In this document: positions 2,600 to 42,663 of the stretch, one piece after another
Layout: every line of letters starts with the position of its first letter
Position numbering within the stretch: position 1 is the stretch's first letter
Program-made: the position numbers and the translations under genes
Assembly: GCA_026986155.1 (NCBI GenBank)
Contig: JALSPC010000016.1
Location: 1-60,791, forward strand
Length of the DNA stretch: 60,791 bases
Direction of reading: 5' to 3'
Source: a bacterium
Lineage (GTDB): Bacteria; Desulfobacterota; S145-22
The notes under the pieces: generated by a model
What the model was told of the DNA's origin: nothing
Database searches by the model: none
What the model saw: the letters and a program-made list of their open reading frames with translations, nothing else

Positions 2600-3871
2600 T
2601 CAGCGTTTTAGATTCACAAGATCAGCGAGCATTTCGTCGCTCGTCGTAATGATCTTGGAATTTGCCTGAAATCCCCTCTGCGTCGTGATCAGTTTGACAA
2701 ATTCAGCGGCGAGATCCACATTAGATTGTTCCAAAGCATTTGAGTGAATAGTCCCTACCCCTCCCGATCCAGGTTTATTGATGACGGGCTGTCCAGAAGA
2801 GTGTGATTCCGCGTAGAGATTTCCTCCCATCTTTGCCAATCCCCAGGGAGAAGCAAAATCAGCGAGCGCCAGTTGCGCAATTTGACGTGTCTGTCCGTTT
2901 GAAAAAAGACCCGTAACGACTCCCTCCAGGTCCACACTAACGCTCAGCAGGGAACCCGACTGGTAACCATCCTGATTTATCATGTTTGTAACGCTTGAGG
3001 AAGCAAACTGGGTTGACTGGTCGAGCCCCGTCCCGCCGCCGGCGGTTCCCGTGCCATAATCAAATGTTATGGGCTGCGGTGTCGTCGCACCGTCCGCAAT
3101 ATTCGTAAAATTTATCGGAGCCTCATTGTCCGTTGTCAAAGAACCATCCGAGCCAAATGTGAGATTCTGGCTGCCCGCTTCCTGAATTGTGTCCGTGCTG
3201 TCCGTATAAACGTAATGCGCCGTCCAGGCGTTGGTTCCCGTCTTAACAAAATAGATGGAAACCGGATGCGCTCCCCCCAAAGAATCGTATATTGTTACGG
3301 AAGTTGTGTAATTGTACATATCCGAACTCAACGTAGCGAGATTCCACGCGGTTGTCGGAACCTGCGAGTCCGCATCCAAGTTCACGGACAGATCAACTCC
3401 CGAGGTAATCTGAGGATTGGAAATCGATTTCGACAAATTTATATCACTCAAAGTCGTCGAAACATCTCCATTAGAATCTATGGAATACCCCTGCACAACT
3501 AAGTTTTCCGGATTAACCAGATAACCGTCATCATCAATGATAAACTGCCCCGCACGGGTATAATACTGGCCGCCATCCTCATTCCTGACGATAAAAAAGC
3601 CATTCCCGTCAATGGCCATATCCGTGGAACTTCCCGTAGTTTCAAAAGAGCCCTGAAGGAATTGCGTCTGGACAGCGTCCAACTTGACACCTCGTCCGAT
3701 CTGATTCATCCCGTTGGAACCGGTCAGGGTTTGACTTAGGATATCCGAGAATGCCGCCGTACTCCCTTTGAATCCAATAGTATTGACATTGGCGATATTG
3801 TTGCCGATGATTCCCATGGCTGCCCCATTGGCATCCAACCCACTGATTCCCGTCCAAAGCGAGGATAACAT
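2600..3871 (-). CDS. flgE: Flagellar hook protein FlgE
   Basis: 423 aa. N-terminus SLWTGISGLDANGAAMGIIGNNIANVNTIGFK. C-terminus ALEQSNVDLAAEFVKLITTQRGFQANSKII. A GGAGG SD precedes the ATG. Confidence 0.9.
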   Translation of the reverse strand: MLSSLWTGISGLDANGAAMGIIGNNIANVNTIGFKGSTAAFSDILSQTLTGSNGMNQIGRGVKLDAVQTQFLQGSFETTGSSTDMAIDGNGFFIVRNEDGGQYYTRAGQFIIDDDGYLVNPENLVVQGYSIDSNGDVSTTLSDINLSKSISNPQITSGVDLSVNLDADSQVPTTAWNLATLSSDMYNYTTSVTIYDSLGGAHPVSIYFVKTGTNAWTAHYVYTDSTDTIQEAGSQNLTFGSDGSLTTDNEAPINFTNIADGATTPQPITFDYGTGTAGGGTGLDQSTQFASSSVTNMINQDGYQSGSLLSVSVDLEGVVTGLFSNGQTRQIAQLALADFASPWGLAKMGGNLYAESHSSGQPVINKPGSGGVGTIHSNALEQSNVDLAAEFVKLITTQRGFQANSKIITTSDEMLADLVNLKR

Positions 3872-9013: not shown

Positions 9014-10267
9014 TTACTTTTTCAACTTGGCGTTCAGTCTCATCTGCTTGGCCATTTCTTTCATCTCCACCAGGGTTTCCTTCAATTTTGCGTAGCCGTA
9101 CCACGTGGTATAATCCGGCATGACATGAAAGGCCGCCTGGTAGGTCTTCATACGGTAATCCATGAACATCTCATAGAGTTTTTCCTCGATCGGGGTGTTG
9201 ACCTCGTAGAACGTGAGGAGGTCGGGATACGGAAAGGTGGCTTGGTTGGTCTTCTTCTTGATGATGCCATCCTTGTAGAGTCCCGCCACAAGGTTGATGG
9301 CCTCCGCGAAAATCTTGTCCGCCGCCTTGATCATCTGGTCGGCGTTCTTCAGGTTTTCCTTAGCAAAATTGGAGGAATGGCATTTTTCACAAACCTTCAG
9401 CATCCTGTTCCTTTCCTTCTCCCAGCCTTCCTTGGTCAACCGGGCGAGGTTGGCCGCCTTGACCACGTCCAGACGCTTGGTCGGCTTTCCGTTCTTGTCC
9501 AAGACGCCCAGGGCTTGCAGGATCGTTACGCGGTATCCCATCCATTCCTTGTCGGACTCAGGCAGGCGCAGCGCGAGAAATCCCCACGCGGTCATCACCC
9601 GGTGATCGCCGTTGGCCATGTGGCAATCCTGGCAGGTGGGACCCCGGTGGGCCTTCCGGTCCGTCACGTAAGCGGCGCCGTGCTTGGAATGGAACCACAT
9701 CTCCCACTGGGCATGATCGAAACCGGTGTGACAGCTGTTGCACGCCTCGGGCTGCAAGGCCTCTTTTTTGGAAAAGGCGTGACGGGTGTGGCAGTTCTGG
9801 CAGTCCATCCCGTACTTGTAATATTTCCTTAAAGCATTGCCTCTAACCTTCTGATCCGTAATTCCAAGGTTGTGGCACCCATTGCACCCCTTCTGACCCG
9901 CGATGAAGGCCTTGGGTTGCTTGTGGGCGAAGCCGGGAAAGGCCATGACGGGAAGCAACCCCAGGGAATGTTTCCCGCTCATGTACTGCTTGACCTGCTT
10001 GCTGTGGCATTTCTTACACGTGCTGATGGTCGGCAGAACAGCCTTGCTGGCATCTGCCGCGCTCGTATGGGCCGTGCCGTGACAATCCGCGCAGGTTAGC
10101 TCTTCCGCCATTTTCCCGCGGTTGAAATCCTTCACAATGCCGGGGGTCACCTTGGCGTGACACGTCTCACACTTTGAAGGTTTCGCCATGGCGGGAGAGG
10201 CACCAAACCCCAGGACGGCAAACAAAAACCCCACCGCAACCAAAAGATAAATCCCTTTACGCACCAT
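9014..10267 (-). CDS. Octahaem c-type cytochrome, hydroxylamine-oxidoreductase (HAO) family-like
   Basis: 417 aa with a signal/anchor peptide. Eight CxxCH motifs: CETCH, CADCH, CKKCH, CNGCH, CQNCH, CNSCH, CQDCH, CEKCH. HAO-like context motifs MDCQNCHTRHAF, CNSCHTGFDHAQWEMWFHSKHG and CEKCHSSNFA. Confidence 0.8.
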   Translation of the reverse strand: MVRKGIYLLVAVGFLFAVLGFGASPAMAKPSKCETCHAKVTPGIVKDFNRGKMAEELTCADCHGTAHTSAADASKAVLPTISTCKKCHSKQVKQYMSGKHSLGLLPVMAFPGFAHKQPKAFIAGQKGCNGCHNLGITDQKVRGNALRKYYKYGMDCQNCHTRHAFSKKEALQPEACNSCHTGFDHAQWEMWFHSKHGAAYVTDRKAHRGPTCQDCHMANGDHRVMTAWGFLALRLPESDKEWMGYRVTILQALGVLDKNGKPTKRLDVVKAANLARLTKEGWEKERNRMLKVCEKCHSSNFAKENLKNADQMIKAADKIFAEAINLVAGLYKDGIIKKKTNQATFPYPDLLTFYEVNTPIEEKLYEMFMDYRMKTYQAAFHVMPDYTTWYGYAKLKETLVEMKEMAKQMRLNAKLKK

Positions 10268-10587: not shown

Positions 10588-12447
10588 ATGCATTCCAAAA
10601 CCGTCACCAACAACGAGTTAAGAAATATCGCCATCATCGCCCACGTGGACCACGGGAAAACCACCCTGGTGGACGCCATGTTCCGCCAAAGCGGGCTGTT
10701 CCGCTCCAACCAGGTGGTGGATGAACGGCTCATGGACACCCTCGACCTGGAGCGGGAACGCGGCATCACTATCGCCGCCAAAAATTGTTCCGTCATCTGG
10801 GACAGTATCCGAATCAATATCATCGACACCCCGGGACACGCGGATTTCGGCGGGGAGGTGGAACGGGCCCTCTCCATGGCCGACGGGGCCATCCTTCTCG
10901 TGGATGCCTCGGAAGGTCCCCTACCCCAGACTCGCTTCGTCCTCGGCAAGGCCCTGGACGCCGGCCTGAAGATCATCGTGGTCATCAACAAGATAGACCG
11001 CCAGGACGCCCGGCCCAACGAGGTGCTCGACGAGATCTACGACTTGCTCATCGACCTAGACGCCACCGACGACCAGTTGGAGTTCCCCCTCCTCTACGCC
11101 GTCGGACGCGACGGCATCGCCAAAAAATCCCTGGAGGAGCCCGGAAAAACCCTCAACCCCCTCATGGAAACCATTCTGAAAGAGATCCCCGGTCCCGTAT
11201 ACACGCCGGGGACACCTTTTCAGATGCTCGTTTCGGACCTGGGTTACTCGGACTATCTGGGCCGCCTGGCCGTGGGAAAGATCTTCAACGGATCGGCGCG
11301 CGCGAAGGATAGCCTCGTCCGTCTTGGGGAAGACGGCCACACCACCCCCCTCAAGATTACCAGCCTCCAGGTTTACCGAGGGATGAAATTGAAGGAGGTG
11401 GAGGAGGTCCAGCCGGGGGACATCGTGGTCCTCTCCGGCATTGAAGACGTGAAGATCGGCGATACCATCTGCACCCAGGAGGCCCCCCGCGCCTTGCCCC
11501 GTATCCGCGTGGAGGAACCGACCGTCTCCATGAAGTTCACGGTGAACAATTCTCCCCTGAGCGGGAAGGAAGGCCCCTACGTGCAGGGGGGACGCATCCT
11601 CGAACGCCTTAAGAAAGAAACCCTCAGAAACGTCTCGATCCAGGTGGAGACAACGGACCGGCAGGACACCTTTATTGTCAAGGGCCGCGGCGAGTTTCAG
11701 CTCGCCATTCTCATCGAAACCATGCGGCGGGAGGGTTTCGAGTTCTGCGTGGGACGTCCCGAGGTCATCTTCAAGTTCAAGGACGAAAAGAAAATGGAAC
11801 CGATGGAACAAGTCCTCATCGACTGCGAGGAACGTTTCCTCGGGATCATCACGGAAAAACTCGCCCTCCGGAAGGGAAAGATGACCAACCTGGTGAACAA
11901 CGGCTCGGGCCGCATCCGTATTGAATTTTCCATTCCTTCCCGGGGGCTCATCGGGTACCGGGACGCGTTTTTAACCGACACCCGGGGAACCGGCATCCTG
12001 CACACCCTTTTCGACGGCTACGGGGAATACCAGGGAGACTATCCCAGCCGCTTCACCGGCTCCATCGTTGCGGACCGGAGCGGGCAGGCGGTTCCCTACG
12101 CCCTGTTCAACCTGGAACCGCGGGGACGGCTCTTCATCACGCCGGGTCAGCCCGTTTACGAGGGCATGATCATCGGAGAGCACAACCGCGGCAAAGACAT
12201 CGACGTGAACGCGTGCAAAGAGAAGAAATTGAGCAACATGCGCGCAGCCGGCCGGGACGCCAACATCATCCTCTCCAAGGTCACTCCGCTCACCCTGGAG
12301 CAGGCCATCGGTTTCATCCGGGAGGACGAATGGGTGGAGGTCACCCCCCGTTCCATCCGCCTCCGCAAGGTTATCCTTTCCGCGCAAAAACGCCATGCCC
12401 TCCGCGGGCTACAACTGAAAAAAGGGATCAGTAACCGGGCGGCGTGA
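10588..12447 (+). CDS. typA: Translational GTPase TypA/BipA
   Basis: 619 aa. G1 motif [34 protein letters not shown]. Confidence 0.95.
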
Positions 12448-12460
12448 AATCCAGCCCTTG

Positions 12461-12496
12461 AAAAACCCGGGGGCGGTTTCCCGCCCCCCCTTTTTT
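12461..12496. terminator. Bidirectional rho-independent terminator
   Basis: AAAAA, then stem CCCGGGGGCGG, loop tttc, stem CCGCCCCCCC, then TTTTTT. It sits between the convergent typA and the 58-aa ORF. Confidence 0.7.
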
Positions 12497-12507
12497 ACGC
12501 CGTCGAT

Positions 12508-12684
12508 CTAACTGGGCCTGGCCAGGGCGTACTCCAGCTCTGCGGGGCTCAACGTGGGATGGGTCACCCGCTTTTCCCGTTCCGGCGGCGTGTCACTGCG
12601 GGTCGTTTCCTCTTTTGCCATGGTTGCCTCCGCCAATTCCCTCTTCATCATTCCTGATTTCATCTCGTTTTGTCTTTCGGACAT
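12508..12684 (-). CDS. Hypothetical 58-aa protein downstream of the tandem attenuators
   Basis: Below the track length cutoff. SD AAGGAG lies 8 nt before the ATG. Translation: MSERQNEMKSGMMKRELAEATMAKEETTRSDTPPEREKRVTHPTLSPAELEYALARPS. I recognise no family. Confidence 0.4.
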   Translation of the reverse strand: MSERQNEMKSGMMKRELAEATMAKEETTRSDTPPEREKRVTHPTLSPAELEYALARPS

Positions 12685-12724
12685 CACTCTTTCTCCTTTT
12701 TAAATACTTTTTCATGTTGAAACG

Positions 12725-12769
12725 AAAAAAGCCGCGGGAAGAGAAGAAGATTCCTGCTCTCCCCGCGGC
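12725..12769 (-). terminator. Terminator of attenuator unit A
   Basis: Minus-strand stem GCCGCGGGGAGAG / CUCUUCCCGCGGC followed by UUUUUU. Confidence 0.65.
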
Positions 12770-12787
12770 TTACGCTCTGCGCACACC

Positions 12788-12880
12788 TTAGCCCGCGGGG
12801 GGACCTCTCCCGGTAAAAAAGTAAAAATAGGCGCAAGCTTTTTCCCTGCCCATGTCGATTCTCCCGTTACCTCTCATCAT
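12788..12880 (-). CDS. Leader peptide A, 30 aa, Phe/Tyr-rich
   Basis: SD GGGAGG lies 9 nt before the ATG. Translation: MMRGNGRIDMGREKACAYFYFFTGRGPPAG. The last four codons and the stop overlap the antiterminator arm CCCCGCGGGCU. Confidence 0.5.
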   Translation of the reverse strand: MMRGNGRIDMGREKACAYFYFFTGRGPPAG

Positions 12881-12909
12881 GCCTGTCATCCTCCCGTGAA
12901 ACTATCAAC

Positions 12910-12940
12910 AAAAAAGCCGTGAGCGCCTACCGCCCACGGC
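12910..12940 (-). terminator. Terminator of attenuator unit B
   Basis: Minus-strand stem GCCGUGGGCG / CGCUCACGGC followed by UUUUUU. Confidence 0.65.
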
Positions 12941-12969
12941 CTTGAACCTTCCTGTGTCATGAAGACCCC

Positions 12970-13062
12970 TCAAGCCATGGGCAGACCTCTCCCGGCGAAA
13001 AAGTAAAAAAAGCAATAGGCGCTTATGGAAACGTAACCTTTGGATTGCAAGATTGAAATCAT
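12970..13062 (-). CDS. Leader peptide B, 30 aa, Phe/Tyr-rich
   Basis: A GGAGG SD lies upstream. A GTG at 13065 is an alternative start. Translation: MISILQSKGYVSISAYCFFYFFAGRGLPMA. Same length as peptide A and aligns to it without gaps. Confidence 0.5.
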   Translation of the reverse strand: MISILQSKGYVSISAYCFFYFFAGRGLPMA

Positions 13063-13093
13063 CACTGTTCTCTTTTCCTCCGTTGTCATTTTA

Positions 13094-13122
13094 ACTCTAA
13101 ACCCTTTTTTACCGTATGTCAA
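13094..13122 (-). promoter_or_regulatory. Sigma70-type promoter candidate for the tandem attenuator transcript
   Basis: Minus strand: TTGACA, a 17-nt spacer, then TAGAGT. Confidence 0.45.
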
Positions 13123-13176
13123 GCCCAATTTTTCGCATAAAATATTCTCACCAGCGAATTTCTAAGAAAGAAGTTC

Positions 13177-13205
13177 TTGACACATACCACATAGTGGTAT
13201 ATTAA
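13177..13205 (+). promoter_or_regulatory. Sigma70-type promoter candidate with an embedded palindromic operator
   Basis: TTGACA, a 17-nt spacer, then TATTAA. The spacer carries ATACCAC-ATA-GTGGTAT at 13184..13200. Confidence 0.45.
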
Positions 13206-13591
13206 ATTAAAATAAATCAAATTTAGAAAACCAAGAAGAATTGTAACATATTTTATGGACAAGAAAATGCGGGAAGTGAATTATTGCACGTTCGGCCATT
13301 GTTTAAAAAAGAATCTATGACAGCTGCTGTATCTCGAAAACACCTGTTTGAAGCTTTGCATTCTAAAACTGCGCCTATCGCGCCTTCCCCCGGGCACCCT
13401 CTTTTTTTCACCATATTATATAAAAACATCCACATATTTGATGACGACGTTTCATTAGTTCCGAATACCAAGTCTCAGGGAATCTCTCTCTATCCCAGGA
13501 AATTACAACTGTACGGAGTACTCTCAAGAGGGGGCATTCCCCCGCTTTATAATTCTGAAATCCCTTATCCAAGAAAGGAGGTTCTGTTTTC

Positions 13592-14026
13592 ATGAACGCA
13601 TCAAGACGAAAATTTCTCGACGGTCTTCTGGGGCTTTTCAGCCTCGCCGGGTTGGCCGCCTTGGCCTATCCAATCCTCAGGTATATCACTCCCATAAAAA
13701 AGAGAGAGGACTCCACGTTATCCGTCGTCGCCTCCAAGATCAACGTGCTGACCCCCAACACAGGGAAATTGTTCAAGTTCGGCAGTAAACCCGGGATTCT
13801 CATCATGACCCCCGAAGGCAAGTACCGGGCATTCTCCGCCGTCTGCACGCACCTCGGCTGCATCGTCCAGTACAGCAGCAAGGATCAGCAGATCTGGTGC
13901 CCGTGCCACAACGGCTGGTTCGATCTCAACGGTCACGTCGTGTCCGGCCCACCCCCTCGTGACCTCGAGCGCTACACGGTCTTCATAAAAGGACAAGATA
14001 TCATCGTGAAAAAGGAGAAGGCATGA
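13592..14026 (+). CDS. Rieske [2Fe-2S] protein
   Basis: 144 aa. Tat-like SRRKFLD followed by a TM segment. Rieske boxes CTHLGC and CPCHNGWF. Confidence 0.9.
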   Translation: MNASRRKFLDGLLGLFSLAGLAALAYPILRYITPIKKREDSTLSVVASKINVLTPNTGKLFKFGSKPGILIMTPEGKYRAFSAVCTHLGCIVQYSSKDQQIWCPCHNGWFDLNGHVVSGPPPRDLERYTVFIKGQDIIVKKEKA

Positions 14027-15084
14027 TGAAGGAAAAGATGCTCAATTGGGTCGAAGAAAGGTTTGACCTGTCCGCGATCCGGCATTTGACAAGGGAAAAG
14101 ACGGTTCCCGTGCACAGGTACACTCCTTTCTATTACTTTGGCGGGCTCGCGCTATTCTTCTTCGTCGTCCAGATTGTCACCGGTATCCTCCTCATGTTGT
14201 ATTACAAGCCAACCGGAGAAAACGCTTACGAAAGTATCCGAACCATTATGACCCAGGTTCGTTTTGGCTGGCTGATTCGTTCCATCCACGTCTGGGGCAC
14301 AAACTTGATGATGCTGGCCGTTTTATTGCACACGTTTGCCAAGTATTTTTTGAAGGCATACAGAAAGCCGAGAGAGTTGACCTGGATCTCCGGTTTCTTT
14401 CTACTCGTCCTGGCGTTGGGCTTCAGTTTTACCGGCCACCCGCTTCCCTGGAACGAATTCGCCTACTTCGCAGCAAAGATTGGAACGGCAAGCATCGGAT
14501 CGGTCCCCCTCGTCGGTCCCTGGTTGCTGGAAGCCATCCGAGGCGGTCAAGGTGTCACGGGTAATACCATCAGCCGTCTTTTCGCCCTGCACGTGGTTGT
14601 TCTCCCCCTCGTAACGATCGGGCTCGTGATTCTCCATCTCCTCTTCGTTCAAATCCAGGGTTCGAGTGTACCCATAAAGGTCAAACCGGTTGGGGAAATT
14701 CCCTTTTTCCCCAATTTTTTTCTCCGAGACTTGAGGGTATGGATGGGAGCCCTGATCGTTCTCGTCGGCCTGGCGACCTTCATCCCAGCCGAACTCGGGA
14801 AAAAAGCCGCCCAGTTCGCCTCGGCCCCGGCCGGGTTAAAACCCGACTGGTATTTTCTCCCCATGTACCAGATCCTGAAATGGATACCTTCAACCATTCT
14901 GGGGATTTCCGGTGAATTGATCGGGATCGGGCTCATCAGCACCGGCGCTTTGTTGATCCTGGTGGTTCCTTTTCTCGACGTCAAGGCCTCCCGGGAGGAA
15001 GAATCAACCTGGTTTACCGTCATTGGGGTCTTCGTTCTCTTTGTCTTCATGCTGGCAATTACAATCTACGCGAAATTATACTGA
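14023..15084 (+). CDS. Cytochrome b (b6 plus subunit IV-like fusion)
   Basis: 353 aa. FYYFGGLALFFFVVQIVTGILLMLYYKP and RSIHVWGTNLMMLAVLLH (haem-ligand helices). PDWYFLPMYQILK. ATGA overlap with the Rieske gene. Confidence 0.9.
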   Translation: MMKEKMLNWVEERFDLSAIRHLTREKTVPVHRYTPFYYFGGLALFFFVVQIVTGILLMLYYKPTGENAYESIRTIMTQVRFGWLIRSIHVWGTNLMMLAVLLHTFAKYFLKAYRKPRELTWISGFFLLVLALGFSFTGHPLPWNEFAYFAAKIGTASIGSVPLVGPWLLEAIRGGQGVTGNTISRLFALHVVVLPLVTIGLVILHLLFVQIQGSSVPIKVKPVGEIPFFPNFFLRDLRVWMGALIVLVGLATFIPAELGKKAAQFASAPAGLKPDWYFLPMYQILKWIPSTILGISGELIGIGLISTGALLILVVPFLDVKASREEESTWFTVIGVFVLFVFMLAITIYAKLY

Positions 15085-15097
15085 TCGGAGGAGCAAG

Positions 15098-16348
15098 ATG
15101 AGAAAAATAATCACCATTATCCTGGTCTTCACAGCCCTCGCGGTTTACCAGAATGTTCACGCCGAGGAAACCTCCTGTCAGGCCTGCCACGCCAAACTGA
15201 ATGGGCGCTTGTCTGAACCTGTAACCCAATGGAAAAACAGCGTGCATCACCAGGCGGGGATAAGCTGTACGAATTGTCACGGGGGAGACCCGGCCGCCCG
15301 CAGTGAAAGCTCCGCCCATAATGAAAAGACGGGATGGATTGGAAAACCCGGCCCAATCAAGTCAGTAAGAATTTGTGGAAATTGTCATGGGAACGAGCTG
15401 TTCATGAAAAAGTTTGACCCCAACGCGCGAACGGACCAATTGAAAAATTACCTCACCTCGAACCACGGGATTAATATCATGTTTAAAAAGGACGGCAAGG
15501 GTGCAACCTGCGTCAGTTGCCACGGCGCCCATGATGTCCTCAAGGCAATGAACCCTCAATCTCACGTCTACCCCACCCGGGTCGTGGAAACCTGCGCAAA
15601 ATGCCACGCCGACAAAAAACTGATGGCGAAATACGGAATATCGGGGAATGAAGTCTCGGAATATAAAAAGAGTGTTCATGCCAAGGCGTTGTATGAAGGC
15701 CATGACCTCTTCGCTCCTACCTGTAATGACTGTCATGGAAACCACGGCGCCGTTCCCCCAAAGGCCGCTTCTATCGAGGACGTGTGCGGCTTATGCCATG
15801 CCTTGGATCAGAAACTTTTCAACGAAAGCCCCCACAAGGCATGGAAAGAGTCCGGTTTGAGAGGATGCATGGAATGCCACGGCAACCACGCCATTCTGAA
15901 ACCCACCGACGCCATGCTGGCTCCCGGCAAGGGTATCTGTCTCAAATGCCATGAAACGGGAGAAAAGGCATTGAAAACCATGAACACCATGTATTCGACG
16001 CTAACAGGGTTGAAAAGAAAAATGGAAAACACCAAGAAACTGGTCGACACCGCCTCGGAAAAGGGGATGCCGATGGACGACGCCCTGCTCATTCTCCAGG
16101 AAGCGAGAAACAGTTACATCAAGTCTCATACGGCCATTCACAAGTTCAACGCCGCCTACGTGCAGCAAACGGCCCAAGGGGCATTCAAAGAGGTGATCAA
16201 GGCCCAAAAAATCGCCCATGCCCGCATTGCTGAAATAAAAAAACGCCGTGCGTTTTTTTACTGGTTCGGCGCCGTCATCATCCTGTTGATCCTTCTTTTG
16301 AGCATCAAGATCCGCATCATGGTGAAAAAGAAGAAACGGCTCCCTTAG
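15098..16348 (+). CDS. Membrane-anchored nine-haem c-type cytochrome
   Basis: Start at MRKIITIILVF, with a GGAGGAG SD. The track start at 15023 overlaps cyt b. Nine CxxCH motifs. C-terminal TM segment FFYWFGAVIILLILLLSIKI. Confidence 0.85.
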   Translation: MRKIITIILVFTALAVYQNVHAEETSCQACHAKLNGRLSEPVTQWKNSVHHQAGISCTNCHGGDPAARSESSAHNEKTGWIGKPGPIKSVRICGNCHGNELFMKKFDPNARTDQLKNYLTSNHGINIMFKKDGKGATCVSCHGAHDVLKAMNPQSHVYPTRVVETCAKCHADKKLMAKYGISGNEVSEYKKSVHAKALYEGHDLFAPTCNDCHGNHGAVPPKAASIEDVCGLCHALDQKLFNESPHKAWKESGLRGCMECHGNHAILKPTDAMLAPGKGICLKCHETGEKALKTMNTMYSTLTGLKRKMENTKKLVDTASEKGMPMDDALLILQEARNSYIKSHTAIHKFNAAYVQQTAQGAFKEVIKAQKIAHARIAEIKKRRAFFYWFGAVIILLILLLSIKIRIMVKKKKRLP

Positions 16349-42505: not shown

Positions 42506-42580
<75 letters not shown>

Positions 42581-42588
42581 TTTTTTTG

Positions 42589-42663
42589 GGCGGCATAGCC
42601 AAGTGGTAAGGCGACGGTCTGCAAAACCGTTATACACCGGTTCGAATCCGGTTGCCGCCTCCA
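42589..42663 (+). tRNA. tRNA-Cys (anticodon GCA)
   Basis: Acceptor stem GGCGGCA/TGCCGCC. Anticodon loop TCTGCAAAA. T-arm CCGGTTCGAATCCGG. CCA is encoded. Confidence 0.95.

Follow-up and report, generated by a model that had tools for sequence, protein, structure and literature searches.

A conserved module with two putative leader-peptide attenuators in series upstream of an orphan small gene in uncultured bacteria

A stretch of 60,791 nucleotides (nt) of the bacterial contig JALSPC010000016.1, hereafter the window, contains a spacer (12448-13591) between typA/bipA (plus strand, 10588-12447) and a Rieske/cytochrome b operon (plus strand, from 13592). Read on the minus strand, this spacer holds, in order, a promoter, a short open reading frame (ORF B), an intrinsic terminator, a second short ORF (ORF A), a second terminator, an ORF of 58 amino acids and a final terminator (Table 1). 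We propose that these elements form a single transcription unit of about 650 nt, here called the module, in which two paralogous leader units, B and A, precede an orphan small gene. A preliminary description of the sequence had claimed a TTGACA-17-TAGAGT promoter and two units each composed of a Shine-Dalgarno (SD) sequence, a 30-codon ORF and a terminator, and all of these are present on the minus strand. The single ORF that it placed downstream is likewise there, with no Pfam family and with a terminator after it. The peptide core that it found to be shared by the two leaders corresponds to a direct repeat of 48 nt, with 77% identity and a spacing of 182 nt, that spans the core of both units; the 60.8-kb window has just two occurrences of the core pattern, where zero are expected.

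Table 1. Features of the module in the window, in order of transcription
Feature	Positions	Strand	Basis or remark
Sigma-70-type promoter, TTGACA-17-TAGAGT	13122..13094	-	consensus scan of the window
GGAGG of ORF B	13081..13077	-	
Leader ORF B, 30 codons + TGA, encodes MISILQSKGYVSISAYCFFYFFAGRGLPMA	13062..12970	-	ORF list, homologues
Phe/Tyr block of ORF B, Y-C-F-F-Y-F-F	13017..12997	-	
Unit B antiterminator 5' arm, CUGCCCAUGGCUU (codons L-P-M-A + first stop base)	12984..12972	-	pairs with 12943..12931
Apical hairpin of unit B antiterminator	12969..12945	-	GUGUC-loop-GACAC in homologues, weaker in the window
Unit B intrinsic terminator, 13-bp stem, loop GUAGG, U6	12943..12910	-	-22.7 kcal/mol
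GGGAGG of ORF A	12895..12890	-	
Leader ORF A, 30 codons + TAA, encodes MMRGNGRIDMGREKACAYFYFFTGRGPPAG	12880..12788	-	ORF list, homologues
Y-F-Y-F-F block of ORF A	12829..12815	-	
R-G-P-P codons AGA GGT CCC CCC of leader A, on the antiterminator arm	12808..12797	-	homologue comparison
Unit A antiterminator 5' arm, GGUCCCCCCGCGGGCU (codons G-P-P-A-G + first stop base)	12805..12790	-	pairs with terminator 5' arm
Unit A intrinsic terminator, ~18-bp stem (12771..12754 with 12746..12729), U6 at 12730..12725	~12772..12725	-	inverted repeat; -32.5 to -36 kcal/mol
Orphan ORF, putatively regulated, 58 amino acids	12684..12508	-	homologue profile; SD AAGGAG 12698..12693
Final intrinsic terminator, 8-bp all-GC stem + U run	12488..12461	-	terminator scan; bidirectional, common to convergent typA

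Homologues were sought through an exact-pattern DNA scan over 185,579 species genomes and through profile searches with the small ORF, against 5.8 billion proteins and then against all 1.84 billion cluster representatives. The genome scan yielded two true homologues, L003 from a metagenome-assembled genome and L004 from an uncultured Thermodesulfobacteriota bacterium, both with two units and a homologous small ORF. A further match, L005, proved to be due to chance, being a terminator tail beside tRNA genes, as were all seven matches of a metagenome pattern scan. The profile searches gave nine members of the small-ORF family in total, and the contigs of their matches provided L013, L014, L016 (the same locus as L015 and L017), L018, L019 and L020. 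With the window, L003 and L004, the two-unit layout is present in nine distinct loci. Every locus has exactly two units, in the order B then A, followed by an ORF of 56-64 amino acids and a terminator, and the separation of the B and A cores is 177-187 nt in the eight loci that contain both. The neighbouring genes include a convergent typA (window and L018), nrdD (L016), toxin-antitoxin genes (L020) and liv transporter genes with a radical SAM gene (L019); since the flanking genes differ between loci, the module is autonomous.

No Rfam family was matched by the window at the gathering threshold, or by positions 12400-13600 at E <= 10, and the amino-acid leader families (Phe, Trp, His, Leu and Thr leaders) gave no match in these same scans; within the spacer there was only microRNA-like noise, at a terminator hairpin. 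A literature search for the peptide strings found no match either. By sequence, the module does not belong to any described family.

The promoter is positioned upstream of both units. On the minus strand of the window, the only locus scanned, a consensus search found no further promoter-like site downstream of TTGACA-17-TAGAGT and none between units B and A. In the eight loci for which upstream sequence is available (L014 begins inside unit B), a perfect TTGACA lies in the same place upstream of unit B, with a TAnnnT-like hexamer 16-17 nt further on. As the promoter is found only upstream of unit B, the small ORF should be expressible only by read-through of both terminators.

GGAGG-like sites lie 6-14 nt upstream of the leader ORFs in all loci. 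Coding was assessed quantitatively through the distribution of differences over codon positions. Comparison of unit A in L003 and L004 gives 1:2:11 differences at positions 1, 2 and 3, representing nine synonymous and four non-synonymous codons; the chance of at least 11 of 14 changes falling at third positions is about 7e-4 (binomial). Comparison of the unit A core of L016 with those of the other loci yields 1 : 3-4 : 7-9, the L016 core retaining YFYFF-x-G-R-(G/A)-P-P by way of TAC/TAT, TTT/TTC, AGA/AGG and CCC/CCG. The number of unit A codons before FYFF is 18 in seven of the nine loci, 17 in L020 and 16 in L019: the N-terminal sequence varies freely while its length is nearly conserved, without frameshifts. 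Where a unit A stop is present it may be TAA, TAG or TGA, always at the identical codon. In unit B, all nine loci retain the reading frame, its stop codon and a Phe/Tyr-rich block whose order varies. The third-position bias and the conserved length of unit A lead us to consider that the leaders are probably translated.

In each unit, without exception, a block of 5-11 consecutive codons includes 4-9 that specify Phe or Tyr. In unit B it is the composition of this block that is kept, the order varying among examples such as FFYFF, FSFYFSFYYFF and YYYGFFTFF, while in unit A the block is kept as a sequence, YFYF[FT]. By inspection, the N-termini of the unit A peptides are short, basic and hydrophilic, e.g. 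MMIGHRRNGRIRDKEYG. In ORF B of the window the GGAGG is 14 nt from the ATG and 11 nt from an in-frame GTG, so that the exact start codon is uncertain. There is also an in-frame ATG at 13087-13089 (minus strand), 4 nt past the -10 hexamer, from which a leaderless or near-leaderless mRNA would give a peptide B of 39 amino acids; L016 likewise has an ATG directly after its -10 box.

Alternative RNA structures were compared by folding a stretch of transcript that starts at the first base left uncovered when a ribosome occupies the last aromatic codon and ends at the terminator loop, i.e. the RNA that is present before the 3' arm of the terminator (arm 4) exists. In these folds arm 2, made up of the final codons of the leader, is paired with arm 3, the 5' side of the terminator stem, and a small apical hairpin lies between them. 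The antiterminators thus defined have energies of -20 to -34 kcal/mol, compared with -22 to -32 kcal/mol for the terminators, and are as stable as these; over all units the terminator hairpins range from -22 to -36 kcal/mol and are followed by U5-U8. In nine of eleven units no more than 7 of 300 shuffled sequences fold as well; for the window the figures are -28.6 kcal/mol for the unit B fragment (1 of 300 shuffles as stable) and -26.8 kcal/mol for that of unit A (7 of 300). The arm pairing of unit B also appears in the minimum-free-energy fold. With the ribosomal A site on the last aromatic codon, the antiterminator of most unit A copies begins at the very first free base, in a GGU Gly codon. 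The separation of the last Phe codon of the Phe/Tyr block from the arm is 9-13 nt, depending on where the arm is taken to start.

These pairings are conserved across the nine loci. For the unit B antiterminator, 92.7% of the cells of the comparison are paired, a figure that may be compared to 31-56% with the partner slid; its sequence is nearly invariant and shows little covariation. Its apical hairpin is 95.6% paired, with variable loops, and the unit B terminator is paired in 100% of cells. The unit A antiterminator is paired in 88.9% of cells, against 32-50% with the partner slid, and has five pairs with compensatory change; none of 500 shuffles reaches the observed pairing or covariation score. 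For example, the Gly codon that is GGA in L003 and L020 is the synonymous GGU elsewhere, and this is matched by U versus A in arm 3. Between the paralogous units B and A, too, the arm sequences differ while the pairing is retained.

Most of what the preliminary description had claimed of these structures agrees with the comparison of loci. It had the ORF ends pair with the 5' half of each terminator, and so they do, the arms extending further 5', as far as the GGU Gly codon. It had the arm sequences of the two units differ with pairing kept by compensatory changes, to which may now be added the covariation of unit A across loci. The last Phe codon does lie upstream of the arm, at 9-13 nt and not at the approximately 14 nt given there. 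A search of relatives and a test of covariation, both of which it had suggested, gave the eight further loci and the five compensatory pairs of unit A. Lastly, it had suggested folding with and without masking of the ORF ends, a comparison that discriminates in several unit B copies but not in most unit A copies. With the ribosome footprint masked at equilibrium, unit B of L003, L004 and L013 has a terminator probability of 0.0-0.2 when the ribosome is at the first aromatic codons and of 0.9-1.0 when it is at the stop.

A 1:2 hairpin, formed by CAUGGG with the palindromic arm GCCCAUGGGC, is significant in five of eight unit B copies (-18 to -21 kcal/mol; no more than 5 of 300 shuffles). It was not found in unit B of the window, L016 or L020, nor in unit A of the window, the only A copy tested. 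A different pairing is seen in unit B of the window alone, where 13028..13016 (minus strand; CCAUAAGCGCCUA, within codons S-I-S-A-Y) pairs with the terminator loop and 3' arm at 12929..12917, so that this unit, when untranslated, has the antiterminated form as its minimum-free-energy fold; no such pairing of this segment with the terminator was seen in the homologues.

The end of leader A is distinguished by the tetrapeptide RGPP, whose codons lie on the antiterminator arm. RGPP is present in unit A of eight loci and RAPP in that of L016, without exception, the motif being kept through synonymous variants (AGA/AGG, GGT/GGA, CCC/CCA/CCT/CCG). Where there is a unit A stop it is positioned two codons past R[G/A]PP. 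However, a nearby stop is absent from four of the nine loci, L003, L020 and L016 (three independent assemblies) and L019, in all of which the ORF runs into or through the terminator. In L003 (439-635) it crosses the terminator and ends at a TGA overlapping the start of the small ORF (ATGTCTGA); L020 (~3325-3509) has the same CGA-for-stop change as L003, and there the ORF ends before the SD of the small ORF. Unit B has its stop in every locus and carries no RAPP-like motif at the corresponding place (GRGLP, GRSLP or GGGLP).

RAPP and RGPP have been described as the most versatile and robust arrest motifs, refractory to elongation factor P (EF-P) and tolerant of varied N-terminal contexts, and are found near the C-termini of small upstream ORFs (uORFs) ahead of diverse genes; in many phyla, moreover, no tetrapeptide is more under-represented than RGPP (Fujiwara et al., EMBO J 2025, PMC12992588). 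Polyproline stalls upstream of intrinsic terminators are known to promote premature termination (PMC5021804). By analogy, we infer that RGPP would cause arrest in the context of leader A as well. A ribosome with R-G-P in its P site and Pro in its A site has a footprint, taken as -12 to +15 nt, of 12812..12785, which covers the whole antiterminator arm, so that arrest would leave arm 3 available to the terminator. Such parking of the ribosome would explain why the unit A stop is dispensable.

The product of the small ORF, of 56-64 amino acids across the loci, begins with MSE(K/R)Q and ends in the nearly invariant LSPxELEYALARPx; the hydrophilic stretch between the two evolves fast. The C-terminal residues are kept although many of their codons have been exchanged for synonymous ones (TTG/CTA/CTG/CTT for Leu, AGG/CGT/CGA/CGG for Arg, CCC/CCG/CCA for Pro), and the ORF thus encodes a real protein under purifying selection. 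The nine members found among the 5.8 billion proteins and 1.84 billion cluster representatives make up a tiny orphan family, with no match in Pfam. The protein contains no Trp, one or two Tyr and, in eight of the nine members, no Phe. An AlphaFold model of low overall confidence (predicted local distance difference test, pLDDT, of 64) has a low-confidence N-terminal helix at residues 3-21 and a C-terminal helix at residues 47-55 with a pLDDT of about 82; we propose that the protein is mostly disordered with a conserved C-terminal helix. A Phe-free composition would suit a protein made when Phe is scarce, a weak argument given that hydrophilic disordered proteins are Phe-poor anyway. As a remark only, the ELEYALARP C-terminus loosely resembles the ssrA degradation tag (..ENYALAA).

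The reading that we favour, and hold to be more probable than not, is that two ribosome-mediated attenuators in series gate the orphan small gene, a stall at the Phe/Tyr codons opening each gate and the stop codon (unit B) or RGPP (unit A) parking the ribosome. In each gate the last four or five leader codons would act as the 5' arm of the antiterminator, the 3' arm of which would double as the terminator 5' arm. In the off state an undelayed ribosome would cover the antiterminator arm while the polymerase makes the terminator, so that the terminator folds and transcription stops. In the on state a ribosome held at the Phe/Tyr block, 9-13 nt upstream, would leave the arm free, the antiterminator would form first and read-through would follow. 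Low charged tRNA-Phe or tRNA-Tyr would cause this hold-up, and the charging of these tRNAs would then be the signal. The ribosome would be parked in unit B by the conserved stop, with the 1:2 hairpin as a back-up in five of eight copies, and in unit A by the invariant RGPP/RAPP, the first Pro codon in the P site placing the footprint over the entire arm. Two gates in series would multiply repression and yield a very low basal level with a steep response. The output would be the Phe-free, mostly disordered small protein with its conserved C-terminal helix.

More tentatively, unit A may be the first RAPP/RGPP-class arrest peptide wired to an intrinsic terminator and may form, with unit B, a double-locked switch that aromatic starvation or translational distress releases; we advance this as a possibility worth stating and do not expect it to be the likelier outcome. 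If it were true, the position of the arrest motif on the antiterminator arm would mean that the arrested ribosome locks the unit A gate off and that an upstream stall, at the starvation-sensitive Phe/Tyr codons, is the only way to open it; the Phe-free small protein, of a new family, would then be released only under aromatic amino-acid starvation or translational distress.

The favoured reading of two attenuators in series accords in its main lines with the preliminary description, which had already proposed ribosome-dependent attenuators arranged in this way: the coding signal, the conserved antiterminator:terminator alternative and the upstream-only promoter all speak for the proposal, and the geometry of the pre-terminator folds places the Phe/Tyr block, as it had said, where a stalled ribosome would leave the antiterminator arm free. 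Two of its points need amendment. Masking at the stop codon suits unit B, whose stop is universal, but not unit A, whose stop is dispensed with in four of the nine loci while R[G/A]PP is invariant. The classical pheL/trpL geometry that it invoked holds for the antiterminator and terminator; the 1:2 hairpin belonging to that geometry is limited to the five unit B copies and was not found in the window's own units.

Several observations weigh against the attenuator reading. The sequence GGGAGRGG, encoding Gly-Arg-Gly (GRG) after the Phe/Tyr block, is conserved in both units (window 12985-12993 and 12803-12811, minus strand). The GRG Arg is AGA or AGG at all 16 Arg-encoding positions and never CGN, although CGN codons for Arg do occur in other parts of these leaders and in the small ORF. 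This conservation is not predicted by the classical attenuator model and could mean a function at the level of the RNA or of the nascent chain; the tract is SD-like, and it may provide a pause, contacts with the tunnel or a weak 1:2 structure. At equilibrium, moreover, the terminator dominates in most unit A copies whatever the ribosome position. Unit A antitermination would consequently have to be kinetic, depending on folding order, as antitermination in attenuators is generally assumed to be; as equilibrium masking does not discriminate in most unit A copies, the evidence used here is the folding of transcripts in which arm 4 is yet to be made. The C-rich arm of unit A has to pair with a G-rich terminator stem, and that need alone could favour Pro-Pro; unit B reaches an equivalent arm pairing with Leu-Pro. 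The covariation counts are partly inherited, as the loci represent a small number of lineages that are probably related. The SD-to-ATG spacing in the window's unit B, at 14 nt, is long. Finally, the regulated gene is not an aromatic amino-acid gene, which leaves the choice of a Phe/Tyr signal without pathway logic.

The conserved GRG segment would also fit leaders that are nascent-chain arrest sensors of the SecM, ApdA or TnaC-like kind and not sensors of tRNA charging. The aromatic block and G-R-G-x-P would then act within the exit tunnel, and the position or duration of the stall would decide the outcome; arrest would be strengthened or relieved by some signal, for instance a factor, a small molecule or a particular ribosomal state. 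Invariant RGPP/RAPP and a dispensable stop codon in unit A are what such a sensor would have, its aromatic block is within tunnel range, being 5-9 residues N-terminal to the P-site Pro, and is conserved as YFYF[FT], beyond mere composition; RGPP supports arrest behind N-terminal sequences of various kinds, and the genes downstream of RAPP/RGPP uORFs are functionally diverse (PMC12992588). We nevertheless think it unlikely that the leaders work in this way. Unit B is without a RAPP-like motif and yet has an aromatic block and a strictly conserved stop, and the variable order of its aromatic residues resembles that of codon-count sensors, unlike tunnel-contact motifs. A stall at RGPP would cover the antiterminator arm and favour termination only; the inducing signal would have to prevent arrest, and no published example of this is known for this EF-P-refractory motif. 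In addition, inspection reveals no signal peptide or hydrophobic N-terminus, unlike most RAPP-class peptides.

Conservation of all three ORFs with SD-like sequences, each followed by a terminator, and of the C-terminal halves of peptides B and A as amino acids, might alternatively suggest three independent small-protein genes in one operon, with partial terminators grading expression (B > A > small ORF) and the pairing of ORF ends with terminators incidental. Such an operon seems to us quite improbable: the arm 2:arm 3 pairing matches the terminators in stability, far beyond shuffles, and covaries in unit A, synonymous positions included (GGA/GGU with U/A). The peptides are, besides, unconstrained in their N-terminal halves, a hydrophobic patch of 5-11 residues would not suffice for a membrane helix, and terminators of this strength (-22 to -36 kcal/mol, U6-U8) would, without regulation, render the last and best-conserved gene almost silent. 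We give very little credence to a tandem cis-regulatory RNA, riboswitch-like or protein-binding, in which a hairpin of the U-rich tract and GGGAGRGG would be the site and the ORFs incidental. Such an RNA would account for the conservation of the core at the nucleotide level between paralogous units and for the constant AGR Arg, which keeps the purine tract pairable with the U-rich Phe codons. That hairpin is 94% paired, but slid registers reach 52-85%, making it indistinguishable from an effect of composition. The tract CCGGGAGAGGUC resembles the PyrR-site motif, a resemblance that the Rfam scan did not back, and no Rfam family appeared even at E <= 10. Against an RNA-only function stand also the coding signature, the near-constant length of the unit A ORF without frameshifts, the variation of the unit A stop among TAA, TAG and TGA at one place, and the conserved SD sequences.

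The attenuator reading invites comparison with characterised leaders. The Escherichia coli pheM and pheL leader peptides are precedents. Like pheL-pheA and pheM-pheST of Gammaproteobacteria, and the trpL class, each unit here combines a short translated leader, a run of Phe (and Tyr) codons and an intrinsic terminator, with an antiterminator 5' arm that would be covered by a ribosome finishing the leader and, in five of eight unit B copies, a 1:2 hairpin. Unlike those systems, to which there is no sequence or Rfam relationship, the module has two complete gates in series. The gene that it would regulate encodes an orphan protein of 56-64 amino acids, in contrast to the biosynthetic enzymes and tRNA synthetases of those systems; unit A has an arrest motif at its end and does not depend on its stop codon; a GRG purine tract is conserved after the regulatory codons; and the hosts are uncultured bacteria, one locus being labelled Thermodesulfobacteriota.

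Tandem leader-ORF attenuators are known from the Salmonella mgtCBR operon, where two short ORFs in one leader RNA, mgtM and mgtP, each control alternative stem-loops and transcription into the coding region, and where mgtP senses the charging of a specific tRNA by means of a codon cluster (PMC3641672). In contrast to the units described here, which are paralogous and share the same Phe/Tyr block, mgtM and mgtP are mutually unrelated and respond to ATP and proline; moreover, each unit here has its own canonical intrinsic terminator with a U-tract, and neither is homologous to mgtM or mgtP. Among antibiotic-responsive leader peptides that control intrinsic terminators, a stall on the short msrD leader ORF, MsrDL, likewise decides between terminator and antiterminator (10.1101/2021.11.29.470318). 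There, however, a drug-dependent stall induces read-through. In the module it is a stall at the Phe/Tyr codons that would induce, and one at RGPP would be expected to repress.

With RAPP/RGPP-class peptides (ApdA, ApdP, ApcA, SecM-like; Streptomyces lividans uORFs; PMC12992588, PMC10951233) leader A shares an R-(A/G)-P-P motif near the C-terminus, a small uORF co-directional with the downstream gene and the switching between RGPP and RAPP among homologues. It differs in that known members, described as regulating the gene downstream by means of arrest, are mostly secreted or membrane proteins, while the unit A peptide looks cytosolic and has 28-30 residues up to the motif, and in that the motif lies on the antiterminator arm, where arrest would be predicted, by analogy, to enforce termination and not to induce. 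An RGPP/RAPP motif on an antiterminator arm is a feature undescribed for either the attenuator class or RAPP peptides; neither 'terminator' nor 'attenuation' occurs in the main survey of the RAPP class (PMC12992588).

Some further observations concern the surroundings of the module. typA/bipA, which encodes a ribosome-associated GTPase, is convergent with it at two of the loci that have enough flanking sequence, the window (position given above) and L018 (6217-8076, minus strand). A scaffold gap (N run) at 5802-5901 of L018 falls within the unit A terminator, with terminator sequence duplicated on either side, and is probably an assembly artefact at the hairpin. In L019 (4267-5585) a radical SAM/SPASM-domain gene and a 59-residue ORF lie directly upstream on the same strand, after the liv-type ABC transporter; as this arrangement is found in L019 only, the adjacency is probably coincidental. 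The idea that the aromatic peptides and LSxxELE might belong to a precursor of a ribosomally synthesised and post-translationally modified peptide was rejected, radical SAM/SPASM adjoining the module only in L019 and the radical SAM gene of L016 being part of nrdD/nrdG. Elsewhere in the window are two adjacent tRNA genes (42506-42660, plus strand; Rfam tRNA, 72 bits each), the Rieske/cytochrome b pair followed by a multihaem c-type cytochrome (13592-16348, plus strand) and a further multihaem cytochrome gene (9014-10267) beyond typA. The cytochrome genes fit a member of the Thermodesulfobacteriota that respires metals or sulfur.

Leader-peptide attenuation is a textbook mechanism that is, to our knowledge, known almost only ahead of genes for amino-acid biosynthesis and tRNA synthetases. 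A doubled attenuation apparatus serving one orphan small protein would imply a starvation-triggered small-protein effector in little-studied bacteria. The invariant R[G/A]PP on the antiterminator arm suggests, further, that EF-P-refractory arrest motifs may hold a ribosome in place as a mask over an RNA switch. At about 650 nt the system is compact, it makes clear mutational predictions and it could be moved into a laboratory host. More generally, the locus illustrates that unannotated spacers can contain three real coding sequences.

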